A stretch of DNA of 64,000 nucleotides from Catajapyx aquilonaris. Taxonomy: Eukaryota. The stretch lies in contig KZ538417.1 in NCBI GenBank assembly GCA_000934665.2, positions 1 to 64,000 on the forward strand. The letters are read 5' to 3'. Below the pieces are notes generated by a model, which saw only the letters and a list, made by a program, of their open reading frames with translations, did not search any database and was not told where the DNA came from. Below, piece after piece: positions 22,868 to 63,633 of the stretch (its first letter is position 1; the number at the start of each line of letters is the position of its first letter). The position numbers were made by a program, and so were the translations under genes.

Positions 22868-22949
22868 CTAATTAAACATTGTTCTCTCTTGTTGCAGGTA
22901 AGTGCTTGAAACCACTGGTTGAAAAATTTGGACTGCGTGTAAGGTAAGG
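22868..22949 (+). promoter_or_regulatory. Candidate recursive splice site (ratchet point) 1 with downstream cryptic RP-exon donor
   Basis: CTAAT branch-point-like motif (22868-22872), AG-free tract taaacattgttctctcttgttg, CAG (22895-22897) directly abutting the consensus donor GTAAGT (22898-22903). A second donor AAG|GTAAGG at 22944 would define a 46-nt cryptic exon (22898-22943). Confidence 0.7.
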
Positions 22950-23580
22950 TTCAGTGTTTTTGTAATTGAATCGCCCCGAGAGCGCTTCACTCTCAAAGTG
23001 TTGTGGATTGGACGGGTAATGACCGGTAATGACACTGTGATATACGCGTTACAACCGTGTCCGAGCACATGCAAGCCTCTTGATGTAGCCTGCTGGATTA
23101 TGTAATTAGGGGAACATCAAAACGGAACAAATGCCAACAATGGAGCTGAAGATGGCCCTTAAATCAGTGTTGCTCCAAGTACATTTTTTGGGGGCCAATT
23201 TAGGCATAGCAATTTTTTTTGCAAATTGTTTTGCAATGTTTTGTATTCTGAACTAGATGCTGGATTGTTATTGACTCAGCGCAATTTACACGCGATCACT
23301 ATTAAACTACTGTTAGATTCACTGGAGATTCCGCTACAGTCATTCACTTTTGGAAGAGAGATGGTTGTGTCCCGGATATTGGAAACTCCCGTCCGCATAT
23401 CCGGTCTCTGATGTTGACGCCCCCGACTCACTTCCGCTACCCTCGGCGATTCGCTAATTGCCCATATCTAGGCCTACCATTAATTATTGGTTCCAGCAGC
23501 TGTAATAGACCAAAATTAGCTTTCTCTGTTTGCATGAGGTTCACTTCTTGTACTGTTACATTACTCTTTCCATCGCTACT

Positions 23581-23624
23581 TTGTTTCATCCTGGCATCAT
23601 GCAACCCAACAAACACGGTTTGCA
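23581..23624 (+). repeat. Dispersed repeat B (second copy at about 60826-60869)
   Basis: ttgtttcatcctggcatcatgcaacccaacaaacacggtttgca vs ttgtttcatcctggcatgatgcaacccaagaaacacgctttgca: 44 bp with 3 mismatches. Confidence 0.75.
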
Positions 23625-26600
23625 ATTTTTTTACACATTTCATACAGGCACAATAATATCAGAAAAATTCGTCCAAAGTTCTGGCCTCGTTTTCCTCAGA
23701 TGTACTATATGATTGTGGCATCTTGATCAACTTTTTTTTCCTCCCCATCTCCTTGGGTTCCTTTCCCGGACTTTTTGGGGTAGAAAATTGTTGGAGAGCC
23801 CCAGTTGGTCCTGGCCAGACAAAGGCAGAAATCCCTCCGCCATTTCCGTCACTGGGCACAAGAGACAATCGGAGCCCAGATAGGCGTAGATGCGTGTCTT
23901 TATTGGCCGGGTGGCACTTGTCTGGGAAATGGTCTGGGTGGGTGGGTGGGGATGCTGGAGACGAAGTGGCCTTTGCTGGACCCCAAAAGATGCCCTCTGG
24001 ACTTTGGCCCCCGGGAGATACAATAAGGGAAGGAGATAAAGTAGGGTGGGGTGGGAGAGAGAGAGAGAGAAAAAAGTAGGTTTAGTTAGAGGGTAGTGAT
24101 GGAGTGAAGCTGCACAAAAGGAAGGGCTGAGATGACATGTCCGGCAGGCAGACAATGAGCCCTGCTGCTATTACCTGTCCTGCCAGGGAAAAGCATTTCC
24201 GCGTTCGGACCAGCACATAAAGTGCCTCCTGGTTCAGGGCTAGGATTTATCGGCCGGAATCCTCCCAGGCTTAATTTATGGCGCGTGTTAAGCGAGTATG
24301 AAAGAACGCGATTAGTTGCTCGGATGAAAATTTGGATTCATTTTTAGCCATTTTTTGGGGGCCCGCCTTCTATGATTTATGTGGCGACTGGGGTTGCCTT
24401 TTTTTATAGGTGGAGAAAGATGGTCGTAAGAGCTGGTTGTTTGGGAGGACTTGCGATGCTTAAGAGTTTGGCCGCGATTAAAATAGAAATGGGACAATGC
24501 GTTTATTTTGTTAGACTAATGGCGAATGTACTACCACCCTGTAAAGACTACAGGACTATAGTGGTAATATAAGCGAATAAATCGGTGAACTGCCACAAAA
24601 AATGGATTAGCCAGGCTATCGTCACTGCCCCGTTGAAGGCATTATTCAATTTGCACTGTTCACTAGTTAGCTGTTGCGAAATTAACACTCAATGAGAATA
24701 ATGGCGTTGCTAATGGGACGGAAAATATTGAATTAGGCCTACTCATTACATGATCAGATAGTTGGTGGTTGCCACTAAATTTTGTAACAATTAGGCCACT
24801 TTTTGCGTGAAATCTGTGGTAACAAGCCATGGAAGTGGAGCCAGGTTTGACATAAAATATTTCGTACGCTGCAACATACTTTGATTACTTGTTGTGTAAA
24901 GTCTGACGAGTAGGATTAAATAATTATGCCAACCAACTTCCTGATGGCTTTCACGAGTCATTGTTGATCCTAATTTTAATTATGTGACGAGAAAGGCTTA
25001 ATTTTTAAATTATAAGTTATGAATATATTATTTGTTGACTCTACACGTACTTGAATATATTTTCTAATTTAATTTTTATTTTCTAATTATGTAAGTTATC
25101 AATACGAGTAAATTGCTGATCCTAATTTTAATTATGTGACAATAATGGCTTGTTCACCTCTCTAAAACCCTCAGCAACTTGCATAAGGACCGACACGAAT
25201 TTATATATCTTACCTTTCCGCATCTTCTTACCCTCCTGGCCATAAAAACCCAGCGAGAAAACTCTTCCATTGCTCAAGAAAAAAATTTTGCAAGCCAAAA
25301 ATTGGCAAGCTCTCCCCCTCCTGCTCCCTTCCTGACAAATTCCGGACGCACAGACTGTTATGTAAAAATAGGAAGGGGGCCTGGTGTCTCCTCAATTCCG
25401 GACCGACTCCTTGATAAGGTGCGCCATATTTCGGGGGTAGGGAGCGGTGAGGAGTTTGCCGCCATCTTTTGCCAGCGGAAAAGGCAGCAGGAGACGAGAA
25501 AATCTATACAGAAGAATGCCTGGGCGTCTAGTGGCGCAGTTTATGGGGCTTATCAAGGGAGCAGGGGGATGGAGGAGGGTATGGAGGTGGGGAGGGATCC
25601 TCTACTTCTCGAAAAGATAATGACCGGCAGCCGCGGGGGGTAGATGGCGCGCACTTTCCCCAGGTTGTGTGCTTCTGGCTCTTTGACGGAAACACACAAG
25701 AAGAGAAGAAGCAGAGGGCCGTGAGACAGCATTCCTTGAAATATTGGCACTTTAACCTACTTTACAGAGAAGGGAAGAAGAACGAAGAAGCGCCTCCTTT
25801 GCGCCTAATGTCCCGTCCTTTTTTTTTCCCCCTTAGTAATTAAGTGCGGAAAATCTACTGTGTGGAAGGAGTTATTGGTATTAGTTTCGATTTCGAGAGC
25901 CCAGAAAGTGGGGGGTGGGAGTATCAGCATGATTGGGGCTTCTGGACCCAATAGGATGCTTCTGGGAGGGTTCTAAATCCCCGATGCTTGGATGGGGGCT
26001 GTTTAGAGACAAAGCTTCTGCACAAATTACAGGACATGGCCGAGGCGATTTTAGGGAAATCTGCACATTTGCGAAAACGGGGGAGGTTGGACCAGAAACA
26101 TGGAAGAGCTCTTCCTGGAGAGTGTGAGGAAATGGGCCAGGAAAATAGCGAGGACTTTAAAAAAAAAATCTGGATCGCAATTTTTTTTTTTGCTAAAATA
26201 TTGTAAGTGATCCAGCCACCCCCCAATTGTTGCAAATTGGTCTGTTTCGACCGTGTTATTCCGGAGGCTAGTATATAATTCGTGTCATTCCCAGGATAAT
26301 CAGGGATGATCCATGGCAGTCTGGGATAATCCGTAATTCGCCGAGAAGACAAGGAAGGTAAATTTATGGAAATTCATAATCTCACGGAAAGCCATGAATA
26401 TGAAGTGCAGTCAGGGGATAATCCGGGGAGTTCTAATACTTTTTTTAAAAATGAAAAATTGGGGTGAATAGTAATTCCTGAAACGAATACGTAGCATCAC
26501 GTCCACATCACGTCCATTGAAGTACAGCAGGATGTGGCAGAAACCTCTCGACTTAAATCCATTACAATGCCGGATGGTTGCCTAATGGATCGTAACTAGT

Positions 26601-29600
26601 GTTTTTTTTTGTCCCTTCTTCCCATCGCGTCGGTTCTGATCTATTTGGCTGAAGTTCTGCATCAAAGCCTGCGAAGTATGGAGCGACACCCCGCATGATT
26701 TTTCCATTACCAGACATTGTAGGTCAAATGTCCCATTATCTCGGGGCATTTTAATACTTTCCAAGAGGTCCCCCCCCCCCCTTCCTTCTCTGTCGGCTTA
26801 ACACTCTTGAGAACTTTGCGTCGATATATTGACGAGGCTGGAATTCCTGATGAGCGAATGAAGGGTGGGGGAAAAGGGGGGGTTTCTCTCTACCAAATCT
26901 ACTCTCTCAGCTTCCTTCTGGCTCCTCTCGCAAATTATTAGATGATGCAGGCGAAGTCCATCATCGGAGTAGACACTAAGGTATACCTATTACACGGAGC
27001 TAATTATTTTGCGACATTATGAGAGACACTGCTGAAACTGGAGAACATTATTACGAAGAGCTATTAATACTTTAAAAAATGATCTGAACTCTATATTACG
27101 CAGGGTATTAATTTTTTGTGAAAGAAATCGGTCTCTGAGAGTTGGTCAAAATATAATTGTTATTTAAATACCCTGCCAGGAATATTATTTAATATTGATG
27201 AGGAAATGTGTGTCATAGCAAACAGTAAAAATTTTACAAACGAAGGGGTCATATTTTAGGAGCATTTGCAACAAGCCTGGTGCTTTAAAACCACTCGTTT
27301 CCAGCCGTAAATTCCTGCACTTATTGCGTTAAGTTTTTATAATTAATATTGATATAGGCAAAGCCGATATTACATTGGCGTGATGACAATCCCGGTCAAT
27401 TCAAAGTGATGTAATTCGCGTTTATTAATACCCAACCCTGCTGTTGAAACCATTACATGAGGTTGGTGGGAGAGGGGGTTATAGGGGGGATGGGGGGTGG
27501 GGGGTGGGGAGGGGTGGAAAAATGAAAATATCCAACACTTACATCAACATAATTGCTGTGATGCCAAATGGTCCATTTCACCAGCAAACCCACATCGTAC
27601 GTCACTCACTATCACGTGTGGAACGCGACTGCAAACAAATATTCGCAGTATTTGTCATGCGCCAAAAATGTACTAACCAATTACTCGAAACCATATAGTT
27701 GAGTGGGTTCAACCGTCGGATTTATTTTTGAAAATATATATATATTTCTCTTTATTTTTGATGTCATTTATTATGATGCGATCTGACTGTTTTGTTTAAC
27801 TAGCATAATATGATTCTGTTGTACTTATTCAATTATATTTTACATGGGAATTAAATAATTGTACGTCATATGCTCTCTGTTTCACCAAGCTTTTCGCCAA
27901 ATTGAATCCAGAGAAATCAATATTGTAAACAGTATAAACATTTGTGCTGCTGGCAGAGCAGATGATTCGCAACAAATAGATGTTCAGTGACACGCAATTA
28001 TGTATCATGAAAATTTCAGCTAATGAATTAAATATGATGGATGCGAAATGGCGCTGAAATCTAGTGTGTCATAACTCCATATTTGCATTGATATCGAATG
28101 AAGGATTTGAAATTAAATATATTAATTCATACCATTTAATTTCCTTACATGAACAAGAAAGACAATTTATTAGTGAAGAACGTGACACGAATAAAATGAA
28201 AACAATATTATTGTGTGGTTTTACCGATAATTTTTCGTAGGTCCATATACCTAGGTAGGTGAGATTACATTTTACATTACTACAGGAGTTACAGAAAATT
28301 TAAGCAAGTAACACAAGTATGACACTTTGCAAAGAAATGTTATGTTGCGCAATTTTCCTATCAAATACACATTATAATCATAATCAACACGATAAACTCC
28401 AAATCATCAAATGTTTGACTATCAGCATTAAATATAACTCACGTAAAACTGCCCTGGATAGCAATGGGCATAAATTTACTATAATATAATTAAATAACAT
28501 CCGATATCGTTCATAATTGTGATTTTATTGCACAATATTTCCACTAACGGCCGTTTCAGGATTGATAAATGTAAATGTCACATCCCAAATGTTAAATTCA
28601 TGTAGTTCCAAGAGACTGTAGTGAGGGGCTTAACGTGAGTGCACAGCTAGGAGTGTAAGTAGCTGCAGGTATACTCTTACACTCTATTTCCTGTGCACTC
28701 ACGCATACTGTTTAATTCACTGCTGGAACTTTCCTGCATATTGTGCAAAAAAAGGTATAAGTAATATTTCATACGCACTCGGAATATTATGCCTTCCAGC
28801 ATTTCAATAATTCAACTGTAAGATGTAATGTGACATTTTCCCAGAAGTTCAGTAAATGTCTGACTTGAACTGGAAAACATGATTGAAGTAAGCAAGATTG
28901 TACAGTTCCATTAACTTTACCTGATCCTTGAATTAACCACATGCAGTACCGCCATTGTTCCTTTTTTTCCCCCCTTCCCATGTAACCACGGCCGCAGATT
29001 TATTGCAAGAAGCTCTCATGTAAAGCGAGCCTTTATCTTGTGCAGGGTGAGCAAAAGAGGTGGGAAAAGTGTGCGCTGCCAACAAGTGTGTTTCCTCCTG
29101 CTGCATGTCTTTGGATAGGAGGGGTTGAAAAACCAGAGTTTCTGCGCAGGACTCGTTTTCCGCTTGAATCCCAGCAGAAGAGAGGGTCTTGTGCACATCA
29201 GACGAAGAAGATTTTCCTCCAGGGGGTGCAACCGCACTGATTTTCCCCCCCGTCTTAATTCAGCTCTGGCTTGATGCTGCTCTTTGCTGTGCAGAGATGC
29301 CAACTTGTTCATCGTTATACTTTGAACCAAGGGTTTTTGGAACCCGCGGTTGAAATCAATAAATCAGAGCGCCATTTTCCATGAGGGGGGGGGGGGGGGG
29401 GGNGGGGGGGGGGGCTTTTCCAAAATTGATATTTTATTATTTTTTTTGTGGGGGAGGGTTGTGTCACGCACACTGCGAAAATTAATGCGCAGTTTTTTTT
29501 TGCTCTCCTGCTGCGCTAATTCCCCCAATTTGTCAATCTTGCATGGGACAAATTATCCCTGAACACCGCCACCAATGGCGCGAATTAACGCCCATTAATT

Positions 29601-33581: not shown

Positions 33582-33750
33582 GAACCCGTTGCCAAATTTT
33601 GGCTTGGACCACCCCCCAACTTGGACATAGTGCGATAGGCCACTACCAGTTGGCGCATAGGCTCATCCTCAGCACACTCCTGCCACTGTCAGGGCGAAAG
33701 TAGTACTTCATGCACGTTGGTGATGAGTCACCGCTTGGACAAAGTCCACC
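33582..33750 (+). mobile_element. Family A copy
   Basis: gaacccgttgccaaattttggc...cagcacactcctgccactgtcag...gatgagtcaccgcttggacaaa. Confidence 0.75.
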
Positions 33751-35116
33751 AGGGCTCTAATATTGCTGAACGGAAAAAGTGAAAGCTATGTACCTATAGC
33801 TGATGAGTCAACTTGTTTTACGATAGGCCTATATGATTAGTATTAATTTGTTACAATTAGTACAATCCTGTAATGTTTGTAACCATGTCTGTTTCCTGCC
33901 CAAAATTTTCCTCCAACAAACCTCAGTCGCTTCCTCCTTTTATTTTTTTTTTATTTCCCCTCAGCTTCCACCCTGGGAGTGCAGATTACAGCTAATACAG
34001 CTGAGTAGCTGATGAGCCCGACTATCCCACGCGGCGATGTTTCGTGAGAAAACGGCCACTTTTTGGCCCAAAAGGTCCCTTGTTTTGCACTAGTCTTAAG
34101 TGGAAAAAATGAGAGGAAGTGCCTGGAGTGGGGATGTGGATAGGAAGGGGGAAGGGGGGGCATGGAATTTCCCTTCTTCCGCTGGCAAACACGTCCACCA
34201 CTTTTCCTCTTTTTTTTCTTTCTTTCTTCCAAGACTCTTTTGCGGGGAAGGGCAATATTGGCATTTCCCCCATGGCGTCCTCAGACGTCAGCAAGAGGAG
34301 AGACAGAGGAAGAGCCGCGGCTTTGACCTCGGTAATCCGATAGATGAAGGGAAGAAAAAAAAATGGGTGAAGCAAAAGGAAGCCCGAAAAAAAGAACAAC
34401 CCCATAAGATTCCTTCCATGCCCGGTTGCGGCTTTGCCCTGAAGAAAACTCAACCCAGATGACTAATGGCTTCATTTCACACCCGCGACTCCGCATTTTC
34501 CAAATCGTTAAGAAAATTAATTAAAAAAAGGGAAGCTTTAGCTACTTTTTTTTCTCTCTCGCTGGAGAAGAGCAAGGCTCCGTAAGTTTCATATGCCTCA
34601 ATTAATGCGCGTTGTCGCAAAGAGAACCTTTTGTTACAACTTTTTCGTACCTCTACTTTTATATAGATGGAAAAAAAACCTGGGTGATAACGCCTTTTTT
34701 TTGGGAAGATTGTAGACAAAAGGAGAGTGTGTCGTTACATTCTCTTTTCAGATAATCTAACAAGGGTATGTGTGCATTGTCTCGAGCCTGGTATATTAAA
34801 TGTAACCTTATCAAAGGCTGGAGATCACATTAGCCAGTTTTCTCAATGTCGTAAGTCAGAACGATAATGTAAATGAGGTTCTGAGATGTACTGCGAAAAG
34901 TTTGCAGTTGTGATAATGGGCTAGGGCATTAATATGTTTCAAATGTTTTAACTTCAGATAGTTTTTTGCACTGAGAGAATCGACCTAAATCATAGTTTTC
35001 AAAAATCAGTTTTGAGATAATCCATGACATGCTAGTAGGACAGAAAATCCTGTTTTCTGGCTTATTACTAACATTAATTTAGGAGTAAATGGACTTCATT
35101 AGACAATACAGCATAA

Positions 35117-35234
35117 CCTCCTGAGACCCCTGGTACAGTATACTGTACCTTTGTTTTTTTACGCGTTTGAGTTAGTCAGAAGGTGCTGGAAAAAAAACAG
35201 AAGTACAGTATACTGTACCAGGGGTCTCAGGAGG
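35117..35234. mobile_element. piggyBac-type MITE (118 bp)
   Basis: Perfect TIRs of about 32 bp, CCTCCTGAGACCCCTGGTACAGTATACTGTAC, flanked on both sides by ATAA (a variant of the piggyBac TTAA target). CC...GG termini. Confidence 0.8.
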
Positions 35235-38157
35235 ATAACAGTCAAAAATTTAATGCCTTGATCTCTTACGGTAATGATATAAAACCTGACAATACCTACA
35301 TGTTAATATGTTCAAACAAAATATCTCTTTAGCATCGGGTCATTGACACGCACAACGGGCCAAAAAAAAAAACCCTGCGGACATTCCCTAATCTTTTTGT
35401 CCGTTCTCTAAGTCATCCGAAGATGACTCTCGGGGCCTCCTTTGGTTATCTCTACCCCAGCCTCTATAACCCGTCATATTTCTCTGGAGCGGAAATCACT
35501 ACATTTCACCCCCTTATCTTTTGTCAGCTGGGGACAAGCAAATGGAGAAGTTGGCCTGCTTCGGACTCCAGGCATTTTTATAGTGTAGCAAAAGAGTGTC
35601 CGGAGACTTTTTGCTTTTGTCTCAGACGGAGTCTTTCCATTCCCTGAAACTCAGAAGACAACTCACCAGAGCTCGCTTTATTTCTTGTTTTTAAAAAAGA
35701 GCGAAGCTTATGGAGAAAACCGGAAACTTCTTTATAAATGCCAGTAATATCTACGGGACAGGTTTTTGGGGGAATTTTTTGGGGGAGAAAGAGCACGTGC
35801 CCTTTCTGGCACCTTTTAGGTTTCAGAACGTGTGTACACACTTCACGTTTTTTCCACGTTTTTTCCTTCTCAGCACACTTGTTGAACTTCCATTTTTCCA
35901 GGACGTTGTGGGAAACCGGTCTCTCTTTTTTTCCCTCCCTCTACGTATATACCCTCGAAGCCCTTTCCAGTTTTTAGTGAAGGTATCAAATTTCCAGAAA
36001 TAATGAGATTGTCGACTGAACCCGGGTATGAATTTTCAGCGAGACCTGATACCGGGTGTTATTGAGACGTTAAGTGCGCAGAGAGGGAAATAACGAGGGG
36101 TAAAAAAAAACATTTTGCGACCTTACAATCGCTGGCTGACCCCCTGTAGTGACCTTCTTGGTGAATTATTATGCACATTTCTTCACGTTTGTCAATGACT
36201 TCCACTTGGATCACTTCTACTACCTAGGTGATGAGTCAATACGGACAAAGAAACGGACAGACAGAATAAGGGGATTAGTATGTATGTGCGCTTCATGTAG
36301 ATTTCTCAGTCGATTTTGTGGTTTGGTTATACGATTGTTGGAAGGTCAATTTCAAGTTTTATTTTCAAACCAGTAGTTTCTCTCCGTTTATTCTTATTTT
36401 TTCTTCTTCTCTCCCTCTCTCTATCCGTTTGGAACTGCGGCATGGCAACTGCGTTTGGAAATTGGGTTGGGAGGCAATGTTTGCCCCTGGGCTTGGATAT
36501 TTACCGAGACTTTAACTTGCAGAGGCCTGATGCGGAATGTGAAAAGAGGAAAACGAGTCGGCGTCGGTGGCGTCGCATAGCACTAGTTGGGAGGCCCAGG
36601 CTTTTTCTCGGGCATAAAACCGTCGCGGTCCAAAGCCCATGGCAATCCCCAACTTGCCTCATTCCCAGGGATTTTCTTTTTTTCCAGGGAGGGTACAAAC
36701 CTCCCCCCCCCCCCTTGTAAAAAAAAAGAAGAGAAGGGGGAGAACCATTTTCTTTCAATCGAAGCCCAATGCGATTAGAAACATTGCTTTTTTGTGTGTG
36801 TGCCACTGCCAGCCCCTCCTTTTTTTTATTTTTCTGCCCACGGGTCGAAATCCTACAAGTTGTATGTATGTGTGACTCTAATTGAGTTCCGGCCATATTG
36901 GACAAAGAAACTGCAAGTGCTGAGAAAATTCTGCATTTAAAACATCTCATGCAATCTGCTCTGGGCTTTTTTTTAAAAAAAATATTTGGTAGCCTTATGA
37001 TTAATTTTGCCTTGGGTGCTATTAGCTCGAAATGAACCTTGCCAGTTGCAGGTGATGAAGGCAGCAGACCAGCAGCAGACTCCTGCATATTTAAAAAAAA
37101 AAAAATATGCGGAGAAAAACAAAATGTTCAGTACCTGCCGTATGCAAATATGGATCAGGAGATTATTTGGCAATAATCGAACGATGGGAAGGAACCTGTG
37201 AAAATGTTTTGACATGAATAAATTCGGGTCGCTAATGCTCGATCCCAGAGCGCGTGTGGGTGCAACAAAAACAGAAAACCTCCGCCTCTTGAACCGCGTG
37301 AACGTTTGATAATGTATTGTGCGATTATTGATTCAGTTATTACAATTCATTCGACACAAAAAAAAACCGCGACTCGCTTTTTTTCAGTAGTTTTCCATTT
37401 ATTCGCACACACACACGCGCGCGCGTCTATCGAGAGCCCGTCTCCCCTGAGCTTACAGCTGGAAGCGAGAGATTTGCATTCAATCGCAACGCTTGTTTTG
37501 GTTTGTGCTCGCCAAAAAAATTGTTGCAAGTCCTGTAAAAAAAAAAGTTGTGGCACCAGCTGTGTTTATCAAAACATCATTTCTGCCCGAATTTTTGGTG
37601 CAAATTTGCCCAAATTCGCAAACTTGCTAGAGTTAATGTTTTGTGACCGAATATTTTTTTTGTGTGAAACATTATTCCGCAATTTTTTTTTTGGCGAACT
37701 CGGCCCCATCAGAGGTTGTGAGTTAGTTGCAGCTGGGGTGTTAGGGAAGCTGTTTGCGGTTCCGGGGGCTTTTCCGATCTGCCCAACCTGCGGCTTGCCC
37801 CCCCCGCCCGACCATTAAAAGGTTTTATGTTTACGGGCAGTCGTATCCAGCTCCCGTGACAAGGCTAAGCTGGCTAGATTTTCACTTAAGTAGCCTGCGG
37901 ATGAGATGTTTATGGGACGCCGCGACTGGACCTCACGCAAGGAAGCCTATGGGACACTAGAACATCGCCACCATTCACTCAACTACATGTCGTCCCAACA
38001 CTAGAGAACACTCCGGATAGACTTCAACCGAAATCTTGAAGCAGACAGATGAAATTATTTGGTTATTTTTGACTATAATCATCAATATGCTAATCAGCTG
38101 ATTCTCTCCGCCTGCTTATTTGTCCGCTCTGATAGTACTACTAACTCTTGCACTACT

Positions 38158-38263
38158 TGAGAGTGGCAGGAGTGTGCAGAGGGAGAATGAGTCATCTGAG
38201 CGTGAAGAGTAGTACTATGGGGGTTATCGGAAGTGTTGCCAAATTTTGGCAACGGGTTCACTA
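38158..38263 (-). mobile_element. Family A copy
   Basis: tgagagtggcaggagtgtgcagagggag...gtgttgccaaattttggcaacgggttcacta is the reverse complement of the family's left part. Confidence 0.75.
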
Positions 38264-39059: not shown

Positions 39060-39061
<2 letters not shown>

Positions 39062-39100: not shown

Positions 39101-39101
<1 letters not shown>

Positions 39102-40772: not shown

Positions 40773-40866
40773 GCATAGAATTGGCTTGAGTCTGTGCCTC
40801 TGTTTGTCCGCTGTGCACGACCCTGAGAGTGGCAGTAGTGTAGAAACGGAATGATGGACTCATCTG
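40773..40866 (-). mobile_element. Family A copy (right end)
   Basis: gcatagaattggcttgagtctgtg is the exact 24-bp reverse complement of 45599-45622, followed by tctgtttgtccg and ctgagagtggcagtagtgt. Confidence 0.8.
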
Positions 40867-45179: not shown

Positions 45180-45420
45180 ACATTTATTGTTAATTTTTAT
45201 TTGTTTCTTTATTTCGTTTTTTTTTATTTCCTCTTTATTGTTTTATTTATTTGTTTATTTCGTTACTTGTTTACTTCATTGTTATTTTTTATTAATATAT
45301 TTGTTTATTTCGTTACTTGTTTATTTCGTCAATTGTTTTTTGTCTATTTCGTTATTTATTTATTTATTTTGGTATTTATATGATTGTTTATTTTGGTATT
45401 TCTTTTGTTACTTATTTCCT
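45180..45420. repeat. T-rich degenerate (TTTA/TTTG/TTCG)n low-complexity tract abutting a family A copy
   Basis: Repeated ttatttatttcg / ttacttgttt units; source of the hydrophobic F/L/I/Y-rich pseudo-ORFs. Confidence 0.85.
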
Positions 45421-45622
45421 AGTGAACCCAAGCCAAAACTTGGCCACGGCTGTCCACTTACAAGTTAGTGTTATTACTCTCTCATAGATGGCGTATCTTT
45501 CTCCCTGCACACTACTGCCACTCTCAGGTCGTGCGAGAGGTAGTGGTACTAAATGCACCTAGCTGACCGGAGATGATGACTCGCCCCGGACAAACAGACA
45601 CAGACTCAAGCCAATTCTATGC
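45420..45622 (+). mobile_element. Dispersed repeat family A, most complete copy
   Basis: Ordered motifs tagtgaaccc / catagatggcg / ctgcacactactgccactctcag / gatgactc / ggacaaacagacacagactcaagccaattctatg recur in other copies in the window. Confidence 0.8.
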
Positions 45623-48037: not shown

Positions 48038-48200
48038 ATGTTTCATCCTGACTGTTCAGAGCAACCCGTAAGCCTCTTTAATGTTGCTGGTTATCTAACT
48101 TACAGGATAAAAAAAAGTAGAAAGATTTCATCCTGTAAGTGAGATAACCAGCAACACATAAGAGGCATACGGGATGCTCTGAACAGTCAGGATGAAACAT
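48038..48200. mobile_element. Foldback/MITE-like inverted repeat (~163 bp), superfamily unassigned
   Basis: Arms of about 70 bp: atgtttcatcctgactgttcagagca...gttgctggttatctaacttacaggat and atcctgtaagtgagataaccagcaac...tgctctgaacagtcaggatgaaacat. No clear target-site duplication. Confidence 0.8.
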
Positions 48201-48219
48201 GAGTGTGAAAAATCATTTA

Positions 48220-48344
48220 GGGCCGGTTTCACCGAGCTCAGTATATGATAAAACCAGGGTATTTCTCAAAATCCCTATCTATTTGTATGGATTTTCCTAA
48301 AGAAACCTGGTTTTATCATATACCAAGCTCGGTGAAACCGGCCC
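48220..48344. mobile_element. PIF/Harbinger (Tourist-like) MITE with TTA target-site duplication
   Basis: TTA|GGGCCGGTTTCACCGAGCTCAGTATATGATAAAACCAGG...CCTGGTTTTATCATATACCAAGCTCGGTGAAACCGGCCC|TTA. GGGCC termini and a 3-bp TTA duplication are typical of this superfamily. Confidence 0.88.
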
Positions 48345-49070
48345 TTAATGTTTTCTACAGCTTTGCAGCCCAATTACCAGTAAACTGCAGCGTATATACA
48401 ATCACCCATTTGTATTACCAACCCAGATATACCTAATCGATCATCTGATTACATATCAACGCGGAATTATGTTGGTGCCAACATTACTGACATGCAATCA
48501 GATCAAATTGTTAGTACACTTACTGCACCTATAATAACTATGAACATTGGTCTAATAGGAGTGTAAATGCCACCTGTGACTCTTCCTTTTGAAACAAAAA
48601 AAATCGCATGTAATCTGGCATCTGGCTCGAACCACATGAGCATTAGCATGTAATTATCGCCAAAGACAGATGCGGACCGACTATGTGTAGAGCTAGAAAG
48701 AGTTGGAAAAAAACGCAGGAAAAAGAATTACGGGTTTGTGCAAAGCCAGATCCCTCGGAAACATTTCCTCTGGCTCGTTATTCCCTTCCTGGGGAGGAGA
48801 TTCCCTCGACTGCTCCGCTGCTCAGCACCCCACCCTTCCCCCTTTAGAAAATGTTAGAGAAAGAGAAAAGATCCTCCCTCCCCCACCCTTTTTTTTTTTA
48901 AAAAAAAGGAAGAAAAATGATTCTGGGCTTTGCCTGCACGTGACCCTCCCTTTTGTCTTATTTCCTTTCCTTCTCACTTGTCCTCCCGTGTAATCCTCCC
49001 GTCTGTTATTTTCGCATAGAGATCCTGTCGCCTGGTGAGAAAAAAAAGAGACGTCTTTTTGTCACTTTTT

Positions 49071-52300: not shown

Positions 52301-53926
52301 GTTCTCATCACGCCTGCCAAGCAACTTTGGTTACAAAGACCAGCGTGCATATCAGCATATCCGAGATATCAAGCCTGAGGCAAGATCCGGCTAATTAATC
52401 CTGTGGAGAGAGAGAGAAAAAAAAATGATGCGCAAATTCTGTGACCATCAGATGTCACAATATCAACTGGATGTGTGATTAGGAATAAACATTTTTTTAA
52501 AAGGTGAGTGGTTGTGTAATCGGAAGAGAGGGCCTTTAGTTTGAGGAAGCCATCATCGGATGAGCTCCCACGGAATATTGCCCTCTCCAATTACGCAAAG
52601 TACCTGTCGCAGGGGCCTTTGCACAAAACACAAGTTTCCTTTCCGCTTTCGCACTTTCCTCTGCAGCACATTCATTCCAAGCCATCTCTTCATTGGATGG
52701 GGAAAAAAAGGGGAGACGACACATAGTTTTTCAGCTGAATGAAAATAGCCACAGTACATTGTTGCACATCCGGCGCAAACATTTGAATTAACATTGCAAA
52801 TTATGTGTTGTACAGGCTGTAATTTAATTAGGTGCAAATTATATGAAACACTCGGGAGTACTTACCATGTTTTTATCCCAAGTATTCGTACTCTACCCCA
52901 AACCTTTTAAATAATTATTGGCGTCATTTAAATTAAATTGGGTTCAGATTCTAGTCACCTGTCGGTATATGTCTACAGGTAGATATACCTGCCTTTTTGT
53001 ATGCGAATTTGACACTGTGCAAAAATTGTGCGGGAGTCAGCCAGACTCCATTTGCAAAACGGGTTTTGCCAGCAAATGAAATCCAACATCAGGAGTGGAT
53101 TAGAGAGAGAGGCTCGTGCAACCCGAAGCCAAAGCGCATGATTTACACACATTTGCAGGGGTCTGTCAGCACGCGGTGTTTTGTGCTATTGAGAATTAAC
53201 CACCATCACGAGAGCATAAATTCCACCACCCCCTCCACTCCCACCCACTCTCCCCTCCCAAAAAAAACCGTCAATGTAGACTAGCTTTGCAAATCACTTG
53301 GCACATCAAACGACCGATATTGCAGTTAGGCTAGTTCAGGGGAAGCAAAATATTTTGCTGCGGTTTTCCTTGTTTTCCAGGCCAGTTGTGTCCGCATTAC
53401 GGCCTTGAAAAATATTGCGGGTATGTGTATGTGTGTGTGCTGCTGACTCGGGTGTTTAAATTGGGGCTCATTAGCGCAGAATTGCGAGTGTGTAGTGCAT
53501 AATCGTGCTCCGCGCGCAGTTTACGGGATTATTTTAATCAGGAGTTAAATGATGACCGTTCATACATCATAGGAAGGCTAGGCCTGGCTGACTTTGTACC
53601 AATTATTTCACAATTATCGTAGCTGACGAGCGACCGTGTCATAATCTTGCTCACGTATCAGTAATTATCTCTTGCGGATGATTAAAAGTTATAAGCCACT
53701 TATACCTGGCGAGGACCCCTCTCGTTTTATGAATTTGCGGATGAATGGTTTTTCGGTCGGTGAAAATAAGCTGGATCAAACAAAGTCTCACGTCTGGAAG
53801 AGAAAGGTTGCGAACTTATCTTCGCAAAAAAAAACTATAGACATTATGCGATTCATAAAATAGATTCTGGGCCACGAGCTGGAAAAATTAATCCTTATTT
53901 TTCCAACTCCTGGATATACGTATTAT

Positions 53927-54011
53927 TGTCATATAGCTTGTTTCAAATATTCAAAAACAAGTTGTTTTTGAATATTTGAAACAAACTCTAGAGAAAACAA
54001 GCTATATGACA
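53927..54011. repeat. Nested inverted repeat
   Basis: Inner perfect palindrome ttgtttcaaatattcaaaaacaa-g-ttgtttttgaatatttgaaacaa overlaps an outer pair tgtcatatagcttgttt / aaacaagctatatgaca. Confidence 0.85.
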
Positions 54012-56732: not shown

Positions 56733-56793
56733 TTTTTCAGTGCAGAAAGTTGTGGTTGGAATGATTCCAACCACAACTTTCTGCACTGAAAAA
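56733..56793. repeat. Perfect palindrome, 30-bp arms with 1-nt loop
   Basis: tttttcagtgcagaaagttgtggttggaat-g-attccaaccacaactttctgcactgaaaaa, checked base by base. Confidence 0.95.
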
Positions 56794-57930
56794 TGGGCTG
56801 TAAATATCTACACAGCAATCAGGTGAGTTTGTCTCGATCTGTTTCCAACCTGTTTCGCTTGCCTGGACTATTTTTTTCCAACCCACCTCCTGCCCTTCCA
56901 TTCAGGCTCAAACGTTCTCATCGACATCAATCATACTTGTAACTTTGTTCCACTCCATTCCACCTCCATTGCTGTGGCAGAAGGGTTGGAGTGTTACTGG
57001 GGGAAAAAAATTCCAAACGTCTATGAATGGAAGTTAATGGAACTGCCAGCCCGTGTGTTTGAGGCTGCTTTCACATACCAAATACCGGTTCTAAACCCGC
57101 CTCATCAGACTATCTCCCACCCCCTAAAAAAATCCGGACCTTTTTTTTCTCGCACTGAGCTACTCCGCCAAATTACAAATCCAAACCGTGAATCATGTTA
57201 GTAGCCCAAAGTCAATCCCGGAAACCTTTATCCGGGGTGGGGTGGGTCCATATCCCAAATTGGATATCCCCCAACGTATCTGTGTCTCTCCTCCGGTTTG
57301 GTGGGTAGATATGAAGCTTGCTGGTCCGTGTAGTTAGTAGGGGGGGGGGGGTTGTGTCTGAGAGAGAAAATCCGGATGGGGTGTCCCTTCCTCCCCCCCC
57401 AGAAATCCGGGGAGGCTCTTAAAAGCGACGCGTCCCCCGGCCAACATCCTCCCCCTTTGCAATTATGCTAATTTTGGGAGTAAACAAATCCGGGTTTCCC
57501 AATTTACAAGCCTGGCCCAACCCTCCAATAATGACGACCCCAACCATTCAACGTTTAGATTGACTTCATTTGTCTTCTCCTCTGTATTGAAAAAACGGCA
57601 CGAAGTTGTCAAGATTTTTTTTTTTTTAAACGAGTAAGATGAAAATTGCTGTACCGAGCACTGTGGGGATGTGCAATTGGAAACCGAACCCTCTCTTCAT
57701 GTTTCATCCCTTCCATTGTGTCATATTTCCATTATGGAAAGTTCATACAGGTGCACTTTGAAGTGCAAATATTTTCAAACTCCGGGCATTCAGTAGTGGT
57801 TTGGAATATAAAAACCGGGGTGAAACTAGTTGAGATTCCGGGCAGTGTAAGTACGTGTCCTGTGACATATTGCCATCTGGAAATATGATAAATCGACCGG
57901 TTTGTGTGAGAAACATAGGCGGAGAAAATA

Positions 57931-58122
57931 CCGTCAAACGGGGTGAGATTGTGCCAGCCCATTTTTTTGGACAACAGTGCGCCCTACCGTCATTTATTCG
58001 TCATTGTCAACCTTGAGCTCAATGTAGTGAAACATGTCTAAATACGCTAGTTTACGCCTGCTGCCAGAAGGGCGCACTGTTGTCCAAAAATGCGCTGGCA
58101 CAATCTCACCCCGTTTGACGGG
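57931..58122. mobile_element. TA-flanked MITE (pogo/Tc1-mariner-like)
   Basis: TA|CCGTCAAACGGGGTGAGATTGTGCCAGC...TTTTTGGACAACAGTGCGCCCT at the left and AGGGCGCACTGTTGTCCAAAAA...GCTGGCACAATCTCACCCCGTTTGACGG(G)|TA at the right; TIRs about 55 bp. Confidence 0.85.
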
Positions 58123-59634
58123 TATTTTTATTTATTAAGTTCGTTTGCAGTTTTTGCCAAATTTTTGGTCTCCCCATACAGCCAGTATCGTTTCAACGAT
58201 AAGTGAAACGAGCCGGTCTTCGCTTCCTCATTAACGCAAAGCAGAAGGTTAATTAAGTAGAGTCTCGGGTTCCTTTGTGGCAGCACCGCAACTCTGCGAA
58301 GATGCGTTTGTTGTATATCAGAGGGGGTCTGGGTATTGCGGGATGGGGGCCCTTGAACAATGGAAGGGCCCGAGGTCTTTCTTAGCTCGGGGGGTGATTT
58401 CGGCAGCAATAACACTGGTGGCAGGCAGTGGGCAAGGGGAAATCGAGTCCCTGGGTTTATACACCCGCAAACACGGGGAATAATAACCGGCTGAGGCCAG
58501 ACATGTTGGATGGAAAGGTGGGCTAGCTGATGCCAATTCCATTGAGTGGCAAACAGCGAAAGTCCATTAAAGTGGGTCCCTATTTCAGCGAGAGAGAAAA
58601 GCGGGGGCCGCAAATAAATTCCTGGGGCCCACCCTTGGCAGCCAGTGGGTAGTAGGAAAACTCTCCTTGGAAGAAAAAGAGAATTGTAGAAAGGAAGAAG
58701 AAGGCTCCTTAATCGCTTTTGTTTGCCATTGGAGCTCCTAACTTCCACGGCCATCTCCATGGCCATCAAGCCGCAGGGAAATGAGCCTAAGCAAAAGTCC
58801 CCAGGGATTGTTGCGCTATCACCAAACTCTCTCCTACCTTTGGGCCTCCTTTTTTCCAGCTTCCTCCGCCATTCCAACATCCAATAAACCCTCCTTTGGT
58901 CCTACCATTTTCCTGCTTTGTTGTTGTTCCAGAACGATTGGCTTGGCCCATTTCACTGCACGAACTTCTTTTCCGCACTAAAGGGATGCTGCGAGGACCA
59001 CATCTGGTTATTGCTTGCCATACTTCTAATTGAATGGGAAAAATGAAACAACCACATATCACCCTGCATGTAATGGGGTAGCTAACTTCAAACATACGCA
59101 TTTATTTGAACATAGTAGACCTAACAGCAACATGAGAAATGGGATCTGCAGCATCCATATGTTGCTTTCATATCGGACTGACGCTGCAATTGGACCCAAT
59201 CCTGTTGATAGCAGAACCCTGCAGGGGGGTGGAAACCGTATTATCCGAAATTCTTCCGATACACCTTCTCTTCCCGCCTCTTGCTCGAGACCCCCCCAAA
59301 AAAGCGAGTGAATCCATCTCTTGTTCTCTCCTTTTTATTATCCGATGCCTGAGGGTCAAGTGCGGCGACCATTCGTGAAATTAATGGAAAAAGCGATCGA
59401 TTCCCGGAAAAGCAAACAGAACGCACTCGTCCCCCCCCCCCCTTTCAAGCAACCAACCCCTGGTCCAACCAGCCAAACCTCCAAAACTAATTACAAAGAT
59501 GGAGAATCCGTGTCTACTAAATTTCTGAAAGCACTCGAAGACGACGAGTCAGAAAGCGACGGCCATTATGAACCTTTCCTCAAAGTCAAATGAGCGCTGG
59601 GTTATTTTTGACTAACAAATTCGCGGTTCAAAGA

Positions 59635-59841
59635 GTAGCGGTGATTAATAGTTGCTACTTATCGCAGCTACTTTTAATAGCGGCGAAAACTTTGGATGTG
59701 AGACAAATCCTGGACAAATCGCAACTTTTTATTAGCGGTGATTATTAGCACTTGTCGGTGGCTACTAATCGCAGATATTGTTAATAGCGGTGATTAATAG
59801 CAATTTTGAGGTGCTTCTAATCGCAGCTACTTTTCAGTAGC
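59635..59841. repeat. Degenerate internally repeated element (tagcggtgatta(a/t)tag and ct(a/t)ct(a/t)atcgcag motifs, x3 each)
   Basis: The two motifs alternate three times; probably a transposon subterminal-repeat remnant. Confidence 0.55.
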
Positions 59842-62800
59842 TGTGACCGATTTTTGGAGATCTCGCGTATAAAGGGGGATGCACAACAACTCGTTAACGA
59901 GTGTGAAATGTGGGTGGAGTTGGGAGGAGACCAGCCAGCATTTGGCTGCAGATTAACACTGGAAGGTTGTCCCGTTAATTACGCAATAATGGGACAAACC
60001 ACTTTTGGGTGGGTAGCCGCCTTTCATCGAGTTTTGGGAGGGGGAGGACATTCCTTATTCATTTGGCGGGGAAAGGCTGCAGCAGCCAGCCCACCCTACT
60101 CTCCGCTCGATTTTCCATCCGGTTCCCTCATCCTAACTTGTTGGGTTAAATTGGGTCAGATCTGCCCCCTAATGAGTGAGACTGGGGCAATTTGGCCCCG
60201 GGCAAAGGCCCCCTCTCCAACTCCAGGCTGCCTGATTACTCAGACATGCGTTAAGAAGACTGACTCGTTTTGGCCTCTTCCTTGCTCCTCCTATTCCGAT
60301 ATTCAATTTGGCTCAAACATCGCCATTTTCTCGAGGACGAAACCCTTCCCACACCCACCCAACCACCCTTTGAAAATCGCCCAAAATGAAATGATGCTCG
60401 TTTTATTCGCTGATATTGGCCCCACGGTTTTTTTGAGAGGAGAGTTGCGAGGTTTTCAAAGGATAGGAGGGAGGCTGGGGGGAGGATAACATGGTTATTT
60501 GCATACAACTTTGTTCAAGTCGACGAAGGGCCCAACAATTGCGAGCGGTATCGGCCTGAGCCCCGAAATATACTGGAGCGAGTGAGGGTAATGGAAAAGT
60601 ACTGCATTTACTTTTTGCGAGACGATCAAAGGATGAAAATTTTAAAGCCCGATTGACTTCATCACTTTCTTTTCAAATATTGGCAGGTTATATGATACAA
60701 TATTTGGAAAATGGAAATTTTGGCAATTTTGGCCAATTTAGTAATATTTGCACAAGTAATAAATTTGTACTCATAATATTAGAAAATGTACAATATTAGT
60801 AAAGGTATACCTTTCCACTTCGACGTTGTTTCATCCTGGCATGATGCAACCCAAGAAACACGCTTTGCATTTTGGAATATTTGGACATTTTGCAACAGTT
60901 GGAAGTTTGCAGAGACGAAATTGTGATTTATTTTGATAACTAAAGCTAGAGTTTGCATTTGATTGCCAGGAATGTGTGCGCTTTATGCGTGAAGCATTTC
61001 GCAATATTTTGCATGGCTCGTCCTGAAATTTTGTGCAAATGTAGGCGATTTAACACATGCTTGCACAAGGAACTTGCATGCGGGCAAAAACTTAATACTG
61101 TGTCCTGTGTTTGTCGCCCTTGAATGCCGGCCATGAGCCATTTTGCATCCTGAAAAGTGAATTACACCACATTCCTTACCACAATTTACGAACATGTGTC
61201 CTCAGGCGTATTTTCCGCAAAAACTTTTCTTCATACACAGCACTCTTTTGTCATCTTTTTGCAAATTCGCAGGCTTGCTCTGATTACAATTTGTTTAATA
61301 ACAATTAGGGTGCGGTCAATATTTGTTCTTGAAACCACCTGAGGCAAAGTAACTCATCATGTTAAAATTGGCAGCTCATGCAATTAGTTTAAAATCTTCA
61401 AGATGGACTATAAACCCAGCTGCTGACTGAGCTCCGGCGGTGCTGCAATCCATTTACTTAAAGACAGAGTAATCTCGTGTTGGCTCATACTGCTGATCAA
61501 AGACAAGTCTGAGATGAATTTCTGGACAGCACTATTTTGGCACAAACATATTATTTACTCTCAGAAATATCCGTAGCTCTTACTCTAATGATTTCGCGCA
61601 AAATTTTTGCGAATAAATTATAATCGGTCTGGATCCAGAAAGTGTAATTTTTTCTGCCTCCATGTTAGATACTCCTGTGCAATACTCCAGCACTAAATCA
61701 ATGGAGCTGACACCGGGTGTTCATTTCGTTAAAGGAGGCTAAAGGAGCTGGCTTTTTTGTTACGAAAAGATAGCACTTTTCGCAGTTAAGAGATCAGCAG
61801 GCGTAAATCACCTGTGTAGTGTCAAGCCTGGAAATTGCAGACTTTTGAACCCTTTTCTGGCTTTATGCTAGGGTATCGGGTGTCGTCGTCCGGCGTTCAA
61901 TTTGCGAACCAATTGGCGGGGAGGGGCTGCAATGTGAACGCGTGCAAATTGCCTTTTAATGGAACAATGGAGTGGAGGAAATACTTTACAATCCCCGCAG
62001 GTGCCAGGGGAAATTCCGGCTCAAATTCCGCCGAACAAACCCAGCTAGCAGCATGCAGGTCCGTGCAAATCCTTTTCCTTTTTTTTCTACAAGCTAGAGC
62101 GAGAACGGAAAGTCCGCTTGATTCAGCCTGGAGAAAAGCCCTCCCAGTCCTGTTTTCCAGAACAAGCCAAAAGCTTCAGGCTCCCACTGATGCTTTCCAG
62201 TCCCATGCTTCGATTCAAGCTGGAGAGAAAGACCTGGTTGTGTGCAAGGGGTTAAATTTCCTATATAGGGAACCCTCAGGGGACCGTTCAGACGCCCCCG
62301 CTTTCCGAGGAGACAACCACGACAGGTGTCATATCAACTGTGGAGAGGCCTCCAGACACTATTTCGCCTTCATGAATATTGCGAGAGGACTCAATTTCAG
62401 ATATGACAATGCTGTGAAAGACGGCTTTTTTTCAGGCGGCCAATCAGCTTGAGCTATCCGCTCTGAGTGGCCAACAGCGTTGCCATTTAGAGGAAGAGCA
62501 TATGCCTTGTTTTAATCACATTTTCTGTTTTCTGAGAATGTGATATCAGTATATCCTACACCCTACACAATGATTCAATAGTACAGTAGGCTACCTAGAA
62601 ACTTTGGCTTGTAGGAATCACCTTGTCCAGTGTGCAACCGAGCTGGCAATGCAGCACTTGCACTGGCCAATCCCAAACATGTTTGCTCTCTGAGTGGCCA
62701 CCGCAGTGTTGCCATATTGAGCCAGCCCTCATTTCTAATTGCACGAAGAGTGTCAGCATGAGTGGTCAGGATTATCCATGCCGTTGGGCGTAAACAGGGC

Positions 62801-63528
62801 AGGTGTGTGGAGGATATGGGTATATCCTGACATTTGGCGCAATTCCCATGCCTTAACTAGACTGCAGAGGGGCTCGAGGATGGGTAAAAATATCTATCTC
62901 TCTCACTTTGTCGTTTTGCAACTCATCTCTGGGGAGTTTCATTTTAATCCGTGTGTCATCCATAATGGAAAGAGTTGGTATCCTGGGCAAGGGGTTCGAT
63001 CGGAATGGGATGAAGGTCCGGTTTTTTGGGGGGGAACATGAAAGCACCACATGAGTTGGGATTGGTTGGAGGAGCTAAAAAAAAACGAGTATGTAGAGCG
63101 GAGATAGGGGAGTGAGAGTGTGTAGTATATGTGTGGCGGGGGTATGTCATGCGTCACGCACCATAGCCGCATGCGAATGGAGCCCCGTGTTACTATTAAA
63201 AGAGCCTTCACAAACACGGGTACAAAGTGTGGCGGACACGACATATGCATTTGGCAACATTAACCCCCACGGTTGCTGTCATGTAAATGTTGAGATGACC
63301 GTGCACCGACGAGCCTTGTCCCGGATCAGAGTGCCCGCTTTGATTATTGTGTGTCTGATTAAATGGGCTAACCGCCGGAACAAGTTGGCCGAGCAAATGT
63401 TTTTAGAGTTGTTTTTTTTTTTACTGTACGTGGGGGTTGCGGGTACGGAGCAATGTCCGACCTTATTTTTAGGTCGACTTGAAGGATAGAAAATTTCATC
63501 AAAATTTGGCAGCTAGTGTAAGATTGTT

Positions 63529-63633
63529 CTTAACTGAATATTTCTTTCTCTTGCAGGTAAGTGTTGTCGGCCATAACTTCGTTGCTCAAGGGGTTCTCCA
63601 TGTGGAATTTTTTTCCAATTTTGTCAGGTAAGC
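63529..63633 (+). promoter_or_regulatory. Candidate recursive splice site (ratchet point) 2 with downstream cryptic RP-exon donor
   Basis: CTTAAC branch-point-like motif (63529-63534), AG-free tract atatttctttctcttg, CAG (63554-63556) abutting GTAAGT (63557-63562). A second donor CAG|GTAAGC at 63628 would define a 71-nt cryptic exon (63557-63627). Shares the 13-mer TTGCAGGTAAGTG with site 1. Confidence 0.72.

Follow-up and report, generated by a model that had tools for sequence, protein, structure and literature searches.

Hatton 1998 and Burnette 2005 reportedly described intronic ratchet points in Drosophila. Related in their parts are the dual-specificity sites, poison exons and decoy exons, in which an AG/GT (the slash marking the splice junction throughout) is usable either way or short non-productive exons lie within long introns; these classes are recognised from alternative isoforms of the mature RNA or from retained introns. 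Intronic ratchet points of the Drosophila type are expected on the sense strand within long introns (over about 11 kb), to have a strongly conserved acceptor/donor motif between poorly conserved flanks, and to give junction reads, lariats and sawtooth coverage in total RNA. Fly ratchet points, as described in PMC8605326, are accompanied by a cryptic RS-exon that measures about 50 nt, has its own downstream donor and is generally out of frame; in Bx and kuz, weakening of the ratchet donor led to inclusion of that exon. A TT at positions -5/-6 was reported for 196 of 197 fly ratchet points vs 44% of ordinary introns, and the segments removed in flies span 2.6-63.6 kb (10.1101/006163).

Outside Drosophila, composite donor-acceptor sites have been called from sequence. 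In the long introns of mosquito, honey bee, flour beetle and sea urchin, such ratchet point (RP) motifs were found to be enriched on the sense strand (Shepard et al. 2009, PMC2773006); in the locust, a study dealt with a recursive site predicted in NPF1 (PMC8892266). Long introns of vertebrates are without enrichment of the motif on the sense strand, the ratio being 0.9-1.5 (PMC2773006, Table 2). Vertebrates do have annotated RS-exons, which number in the hundreds according to PMC6224609.

The stretch of DNA analysed here (the window, 64 kb) contains two + strand sites, at 22897/22898 and 63556/63557, both of which read exactly (Y)nTTGCAG/GTAAGTG. The junctions are 40,659 nt apart (63556 - 22897). 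Their common 13-mer, TTGCAGGTAAGTG, is present in two exact copies in the window, at 22892-22904 and 63551-63563, both on the + strand. With one mismatch allowed the number is still two, against an expected 0.07, and at least two copies were reached in 0/100 shuffles. The 9-mer within it, CAGGTAAGT, was found in only these two places when both strands of the window were searched; 0.38 copies are expected for both strands together and 5 of 100 shuffles reached two. Markov simulations gave a per-strand expectation of 0.10-0.25 for this 9-mer, and the rate of about 0.25 per strand put forward in the sequence-only reading of this DNA was thus about right.

At site 1 the branch-point-like CTAAT (22868..22872, +) places its branch A (22871) 26 nt before the G of the acceptor. 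Branch points follow the consensus yTnAy, which this CTAAT fits. The AG-free zone is 28 nt long, there being no AG between branch point and acceptor, and the pyrimidine tract with its acceptor TTGCAG (22878..22897, +) has a pyrimidine (Y) fraction of 0.76 at -20..-4 and TT at -5/-6. The adjoining ratchet-point donor GTAAGT (22898..22903, +) matches the intronic consensus at 6/6 positions. A second donor, AAG/GTAAGG (22944..22949, +), lies 46 nt from the site and would define a putative cryptic RS-exon 1 of 46 nt (22898..22943, +), which is not a multiple of 3 and, read by hand, has stops in two of three frames.

Site 2 is built in the same manner. The branch-point-like TTAAC (63530..63534, +) puts its branch A (63533) 23 nt before the acceptor, within an AG-free zone of 32 nt; the tract and acceptor TTGCAG (63537..63556, +) again show a Y fraction of 0.76 and TT at -5/-6, and are joined directly by the ratchet-point donor GTAAGT (63557..63562, +). 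A downstream donor, CAG/GTAAGC (63627/63628; 63608..63633 with its upstream tract, +), 71 nt from the site, closes a putative cryptic RS-exon 2 of 71 nt (63557..63627, +), again not a multiple of 3 and with stops in two of three frames. Both the motif common to the two + strand sites and the AG-free pyrimidine tracts with branch-point-like motifs about 23-26 nt upstream had been pointed out in the sequence-only reading and were found as described there.

The second donor of site 2 is preceded by a T-rich tract (Y 0.82, AG-free over 35 nt) and is therefore itself a third composite acceptor/donor-like site, counted under relaxed criteria and with TG at -5/-6 in place of TT. No description of a tandem double ratchet, as site 2 would be (63556 plus 63627), was found in the text consulted on ratchet points. 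A weak fourth composite-like site, a T-tract followed by TAG/GTGTGT (14114/14115; 14095..14120, +), came from the relaxed composite scan and is doubtful because its donor coincides with the beginning of a GT microsatellite.

We lean, by a modest degree, towards reading 22897/22898 and 63556/63557 as Drosophila-type ratchet points of a + strand pre-mRNA, each probably provided with a cryptic RS-exon and a second donor. The likeness to Drosophila lies in the juxtaposed (Y)nNCAG/GTAAGT, the TT at -5/-6 and the full-consensus ratchet donor (PMC6110457; PMC8605326; 10.1101/006163), in a short out-of-frame cryptic exon with a second donor, of 46 and 71 nt here vs about 50 nt in the fly reports, and in tens of kb without recognisable exons, the segment falling within the reported 2.6-63.6 kb. 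Unlike most of the fly ratchet points in supplement 5 of Pai et al., the tracts here are weaker, being 76% Y and interrupted by G. Also unlike Drosophila, site 2 has a downstream donor that resembles an acceptor as well, which makes the composite site a tandem one, and the sites are known here from sequence. The predicted invertebrate RP-sites (PMC2773006) and locust NPF1 (PMC8892266) resemble the present case in that a composite donor-acceptor was called from sequence; those predictions had gene models, whereas the sense strand here is taken from the sites themselves.

If the sites are used in this way, the downstream donor would lead to exon definition of the cryptic exon (46 or 71 nt), and the upstream exon would be spliced onto the ratchet-point acceptor. 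The resulting junction would rebuild a donor that outcompetes the downstream donor, and removal of the following stretch of intron would then take the cryptic exon with it. On this reading the 40.7 kb that separate the sites would be excised as one of these stretches. Vertebrate RS-exons (Sibley et al. 2015 in PMC5126111; Blazquez et al., PMC6224609) are described as similar in that the exon is defined first, as proposed here, that the regenerated donor competes with the RS-exon's own donor, and that inclusion brings stops or frameshifts, as it would here. They differ in that many are annotated and constitutively included.

The most probable of the alternatives, which we nevertheless consider unlikely, is that both units persist in the mature RNA as genuine exons of 46 and 71 nt (5'UTR, non-coding or alternative) that begin with GTAAGT by coincidence or are regulated through it. 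They would then be expressed RS-exons or dual-specificity sites, and not ratchet points that are skipped every time within a single giant intron. An acceptor with a donor 46-71 nt further on is also how an ordinary short exon is laid out, and one frame of three is open in each unit. Both downstream donors (AAG/GTAAGG and CAG/GTAAGC) are strong. At the intronic positions the ratchet donors match at 6/6 (GTAAGT) and the downstream donors at 5/6 (GTAAGG, GTAAGC), while positions -3..-1 of the regenerated donor, being exonic, are set by the upstream exon; since the downstream donors nearly equal the ratchet donors, skipping of the cryptic exons is not assured. Expressed RS-exons do exist in flies (PMC8605326), and hundreds are annotated in vertebrates (PMC6224609). 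Against retention, the 46 and 71 nt lengths both break the frame, and the open frame of exon 1, followed by hand into exon 2, meets a stop right at the beginning of the latter; it is impossible that both units are coding in series. Furthermore, GTAAGT as the first six bases of an exon is rare in ordinary exons, but is present at both. In flies, expressed RS-exons number fewer than 50 vs more than 500 intronic ratchet points, cryptic ratchet exons being about ten times as numerous as expressed ones (PMC8605326).

The putative intron segment that would be removed in one recursive step (22898..63556, +; 40,659 nt) has no coding match on either strand and no other composite site inside. Pfam was searched with 454 stop-to-stop ORFs of at least 58 aa from the whole 64 kb, comprising all 155 of at least 84 aa and 299 of 58-83 aa (those of 58-83 aa containing X, derived from N, were left out), and no match above the curated cut-off was obtained. 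Matches below the cut-off were seen for 1/23, 5/132, 0/150 and 0/149 ORFs in the four batches. Homology searches with three long ORFs agreed: no homologue was found among 647 candidates for ORF 58128-58898(-) or among 112 candidates for ORF 61820-62449(+), and ORF 59821-60486(+) gave two marginal matches (E 1.7e-4 and 4.1e-4) in 10 and 5 short stretches. The latter, none of which reached 1e-10 or better, were taken as noise. Within the scope of the Pfam search (454 ORFs of at least 58 aa) and these three homology searches, the earlier statement that no recognisable coding exon lies between the sites holds.

Quite improbable, in our judgement, is a second alternative, in which both sites are genuine splicing elements that do not share one intron, with unseen exons (non-conserved, UTR or lncRNA) or two transcription units between them, in which case the 40.7 kb would not be removed as one recursive segment. 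Exon detection here consisted of Pfam and homology of ORFs of at least 58 aa, and short or non-coding exons would for that reason be invisible to it. Depletion of donors on the sense strand was sought between the sites by counting AGGTRAG on both strands and was not seen, with five such donor-like sequences on the + strand vs two on the - strand. A length of 40.7 kb is also long for a segment of the fly type, about 2.5 SD over the fly mean (18 +/- 9 kb) and inside the range reported in 10.1101/006163. What counts against separate introns is the absence of any other composite site or coding signal in between, together with the strand, 13-mer and architecture that are common to both sites.

Composite sites and donor pairs were also counted over the whole window and in simulated sequences. 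The + strand has five AGGTAAG, four of which are inside the two site pairs, and the - strand has two; no simulated window, out of 2000 each for Markov orders 1, 3 and 5, had two close donor pairs on one strand. Under a strict definition of the composite site (Y of at least 0.75, AG-free zone of at least 15, YAG/GTAAGT) there are two on the + strand and none on the - strand, with 0.006-0.014 expected per strand. At least two strict composites on one strand, and likewise two composites each with a downstream donor, were never obtained in 2000 simulations per Markov order (1 and 3). The thresholds applied in the simulations were set only after inspection of the sites. Relaxed composite sites number four on the + strand and none on the - strand in the whole window. 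The background of RP-like sites on the antisense strand is given as about 0.1 per 100 kb, and the density on the sense strand, for long introns of invertebrates, as 0.5-2.2 (PMC2773006); this window carries about 3 RP-like sites per 100 kb, on a single strand only.

That splice-like motifs in non-transcribed DNA came about by chance and were picked from many screened windows is the least probable of the alternatives. In its favour, the 9-mer alone is only modestly unexpected (two copies in 5/100 shuffles), two places that share some 13-mer are nothing unusual within 64 kb, and the stricter criteria were framed with the sites already in view. Against it, every such site is on one strand and the counts never arose in simulations (strict composites 0/4000, donor pairs 0/6000, composites with downstream donors 0/4000), which makes chance very unlikely, the estimated chance rate being well below 1e-5 per window.

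An origin of the sites from a dispersed repeat or transposon was considered and rejected. The two sites are alike only in the 13-mer, their flanks are unrelated, and no repeat identified by self-BLAST covers either of them. The sequence-only reading had named membership in a dispersed repeat without strand bias as an observation that would speak against it, and neither related flanks nor a repeat at either site was found. A metagenome scan with a gapped pattern returned 25 loci, close to the rough chance estimate, and 0 of these were BLAST-similar to the window. The 539 D. melanogaster sites given in supplement 5 of Pai et al. (PMC6110457) include neither of the two, and 22-mers of the sites had no match in the literature searched.

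Strand asymmetry was considered as a further indication of the sense strand. On the + strand T exceeds A in 24 of 32 bins of 2 kb, with an overall TA skew of 3.3%, and G exceeds C in 25 of 32. Coding strands in general are reported to carry more T than A (PMC5786239), and those of invertebrates tend to C over G (PMC5786239, citing Touchon 2004). Because the + strand has T>A yet G>C, the two skews disagree in direction if the DNA is from an invertebrate. As a test of the sense strand, then, the TA skew favours the + strand, the GC skew is ambiguous, and the result is not decisive.

On the favoured reading the window would be intronic, its + strand would be transcribed and the sites would be in use. 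The CpG observed/expected ratio of the window is 0.73, which differs from the Drosophila value, and its CpG content is not vertebrate-like. A tentative and rather doubtful extension of the favoured reading is that the DNA may belong to an invertebrate outside the drosophilids whose genome is depleted in CpG, and in which the two sites would be constitutively used ratchet points. Recursive splicing had been proposed for this locus in the sequence-only reading; the case from sequence has become stronger than was claimed, through the downstream donors, the TT at -5/-6, the restriction to the + strand and the simulations, but the suggestion of a lineage in which the process is undocumented is unsupported.

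Provided that the two sites are in use, they would add to the known recursive splice sites and, depending on the organism, could show that the Drosophila mechanism of ratchet point plus cryptic exon operates elsewhere. If in addition the genome is non-drosophilid, the complete fly grammar, by which we mean the TT at -5/-6, the cryptic exon of about 50 nt set by a second donor and the competition between donors, would not be a dipteran peculiarity, and site 2, with 63556 and 63627 in tandem, would moreover amount to a double ratchet. The requirement for a downstream donor turned a weak 9-mer match, seen in 5/100 shuffles, into a signal that was never reproduced in simulations, and could serve, at little cost, to pick out recursive sites from the sequence of genomes that lack annotation.

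Searches of the window for RNA genes found no tRNA and no Rfam match at the gathering score. Eight matches to miRNA families were recorded below threshold, all of them on palindromic hairpins.

Within the window, the 13-mer TTGCAGGTAAGTG occurs in two exact copies, at 22892-22904 and 63551-63563, both on the + strand (0.07 expected; at least two copies in 0 of 100 shuffles), and allowing one mismatch revealed no extra copies in the window. With both strands scanned, its core CAGGTAAGT is found at just these two positions (0.38 expected; at least two in 5 of 100 shuffles). Each copy is part of a composite site, that is, an acceptor fused directly to a donor. In site 1, gagCTAATtaaacattgttctctcttgTTGCAG runs into GTAAGTG at + strand junction 22897/22898, with a branch-like A at 22871, while in site 2 tcTTAACtgaatatttctttctcTTGCAG does so at + strand junction 63556/63557, with a branch-like A at 63533. 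At both sites the stretch from -20 to -4 has a pyrimidine fraction of 0.76, and the AG-free zones measure 28 nt (site 1) and 32 nt (site 2). The sequence-only reading, which had noted a shared 13-mer, the + strand, pyrimidine tracts and a branch-like A, is borne out in every detail. Pairwise alignment of the 220-nt flanks of the two sites found no similarity beyond the 13-mer, nor did self-BLAST of the window find a repeat overlapping either site. Unrelated flanks together with the self-BLAST rule out a repeat origin of the sites, and the common 13-mer is simply the acceptor and donor consensus occurring twice.

Both sites are followed by a second, strong + strand donor, AAG/GTAAGG at 22943/22944 (46 nt downstream of site 1) and CAG/GTAAGC at 63627/63628 (71 nt downstream of site 2). 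Four of the five + strand AGGTAAG heptamers (22896, 22942, 40210, 63555 and 63626) are accounted for by these two donor pairs; the - strand carries two. According to Joseph et al. (PMC8605326), a fly ratchet point is a tandem acceptor/donor encompassing a short cryptic exon, the RS-exon, with a donor downstream that the ratchet donor normally outcompetes. The RS-exons of the fly are variable in length, about 50 nt, and the exons implied here are 46 and 71 nt. The TT at -5/-6 that Duff et al. (bioRxiv 10.1101/006163) give for 196 of 197 fly ratchet points, versus 44% of ordinary introns, is present at both sites (TTGCAG). The distance between the sites, 40,659 nt, is inside the range of fly recursive segments in the same report (2,596-63,580 bp, mean 17,953 +/- 9,039 bp), but long. 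The 539 recursive sites of D. melanogaster in supplement 5 of Pai et al. include neither of the two, one unrelated entry there carrying the same 13-mer, and the 22-mers around both sites were not found in the literature text searched. As a small oddity, the donor at 63627 has a T-rich AG-free tract upstream (pyrimidine fraction 0.82, AG-free zone 35 nt), and site 2 is possibly a tandem ratchet (63556 and 63627).

On balance we lean towards both sites acting as ratchet points, each with a cryptic RS-exon, in a pre-mRNA of the + strand. The cryptic exon would be recognised by exon definition via its downstream donor, the upstream exon would be spliced to the acceptor of the composite site, a consensus donor would be regenerated at the new junction, and the cryptic exon would then leave together with the next intron segment. 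What the sequence shows is the splice-site grammar, its confinement to one strand and the improbability of chance; that the stretch is transcribed, lies in an intron and is spliced at these sites is inferred. It is rather unlikely that the units are instead retained as exons in mature RNA, whether as expressed RS-exons or as dual-specificity sites. Neither implied exon has a length divisible by three; inspection by hand found stops in two of the three frames of each, and the sole open frame of the first hits a stop codon where the second begins. A further possibility, which we consider improbable, is that these are real splicing elements that do not lie within one intron.

For long introns, Shepard et al. 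(PMC2773006) counted, per 100 kb of sense and antisense strand respectively, 2.2 and 0.10 ratchet-point sites in fly, 1.03 and 0 in mosquito, 0.81 and 0.10 in beetle, 0.54 and 0.066 in sea urchin, 0.48 and 0.12 in bee, and about 0.1 on either strand in vertebrates. The 64 kb has two to three sites, all on a single strand, which fits the sense strand of long introns in invertebrates and does not fit the background. The strand of transcription is the weak point of the case. On the + strand T exceeds A in 24 of 32 2-kb bins (overall skew 3.3%) and G outnumbers C in 25 of them (2.6%). Coding strands in general have more T than A, and their GC skew runs towards G in vertebrates and towards C in invertebrates (PMC5786239, citing Touchon 2004), so the TA skew favours the + strand and the GC skew is ambiguous. 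Depletion of donor-like heptamers on the + strand between the sites was not seen (5 on + vs 2 on -).

The window is 43.5% G+C and contains 29 N; its CpG observed/expected ratio of 0.73 is not vertebrate-like and is below expectation for Drosophila. No tRNA was found in the window and no Rfam family reached its gathering score. A Pfam scan covered 454 stop-to-stop ORFs, comprising all 155 of at least 84 aa and 299 of 58-83 aa (those of the latter size with X from N being excluded), and gave no match above the curated cut-off; matches below it came from 1/23, 5/132, 0/150 and 0/149 ORFs by batch. Long stop-free frames are in excess, with five ORFs of at least 200 aa against 0.26-0.85 expected (simulations with at least five numbered 0, 0 and 1 out of 400 for Markov orders 1, 3 and 5). 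None of these ORFs, at 1639-2331(-), 36501-37127(-), 58128-58901(-), 59821-60489(+) and 61820-62452(+), matches Pfam, and the excess might stem from patchy composition or from coding sequence that decayed very long ago. No homologues were found for the 257-aa ORF at 58128-58901 among 647 candidates or for the 210-aa ORF at 61820-62452 among 112. The 222-aa ORF at 59821-60489 had no credible homologue among 1.84 billion representatives, with two marginal fragmented matches (E about 1e-4). With neither Pfam matches above cut-off nor credible homologues, protein-coding exons and transposon proteins are not recognisable on either strand of the 64 kb, and the earlier statement that no recognisable coding exon separates the sites holds within the reach of these searches. 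This lack suits a giant intron and a gene desert equally.

Chance occurrence of the paired sites is very unlikely, given the large margins in windows simulated from Markov models of orders 1, 3 and 5 trained on the window (2000 runs each), even with composite-site thresholds picked once the sites were already known. A single close donor pair (at most 100 nt apart) arose in 90, 13 and 47 runs at orders 1, 3 and 5, but two on one strand in none of the 2000 at any order. Strict composite sites (pyrimidine fraction at least 0.75, AG-free zone at least 15 nt, YAG/GTAAGT) number two on the + strand and none on the - strand of the window, versus 0.006-0.014 per strand in simulations, where two on one strand occurred in 0/2000 runs at orders 1 and 3. 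The simulations likewise yielded two relaxed sites, each with a downstream donor, in 0/2000. Relaxed donor criteria give four composite sites on the + strand (14114, 22897, 63556 and 63627) and none on the - strand; that at 14114, where a GT microsatellite comes after a T-tract, is doubtful.

Recursive sites or their enrichment are in print for Drosophila species, human and mouse. The same goes for lungfish (10.1101/2024.12.11.627982), for locust, with a predicted site and U2AF65 RIP (PMC8892266), and, by computation, for mosquito, bee, beetle and sea urchin (PMC2773006). The two sites are a sequence-level prediction and would be additions to a well-described class, more telling if the host were outside the lineages examined for recursive splicing and RNA data confirmed their use.

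Self-BLAST located near-perfect palindromic hairpins of 59-392 nt scattered in the window (4905-4987, 12135-12468, 35114-35237, 48038-48200, 48210-48354, 53932-53990, 56733-56793 and 57925-58128), that at 56733-56793 being 98% self-complementary across 61 nt. At a permissive threshold the only Rfam hits were sub-threshold miRNA-family matches on three of these hairpins (e.g. mir-34, at 32 bits where the gathering score is 53); the hairpins may represent MITE-like elements or else genes for hairpin RNAs. A tandem array at 7167-7495 has about 22 copies of the 15-nt unit AGGGTCTAATAAGAG (83% matches), the translation of which is the sole source of the weak low-complexity Pfam matches. A small dispersed repeat family (roughly 40-150 nt, 67-95% identity, both orientations) is found at 45480-45620, 9889-9989, 10542-10662, 20009-20054, 38133-38190 and 40773-40810; beside it, at 45189-45357, is a T-rich 50-nt tandem repeat. 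A 63-nt direct similarity (86%) between 23566-23628 and 60811-60873 is probably also a small dispersed repeat; one copy is 669 nt downstream of site 1, the other 2.7 kb upstream of site 2, and the similarity lacks collinearity with the sites. Single N at 21829, 29403, 33364 and 41854, a 25-N gap at 5934-5958 and a 30-nt G homopolymer broken by an N (29385-29414) mark the assembly as draft-quality in places, none of them near site 1 or site 2.

A metagenome scan for the architecture of 13-mer, gap and donor returned 25 loci, none with likeness to the window. In L003 and L012, L015, L018, L019, and L020 and L022, a pyrimidine tract and TTGCAG/GTAAGTG are succeeded by a brief exon-like segment with a donor, around position 601 of each. 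The contigs bearing these loci apparently derive from eukaryotes, and the pair L003 and L012 has the look of orthologues in which the motif is kept and the adjacent bases differ.
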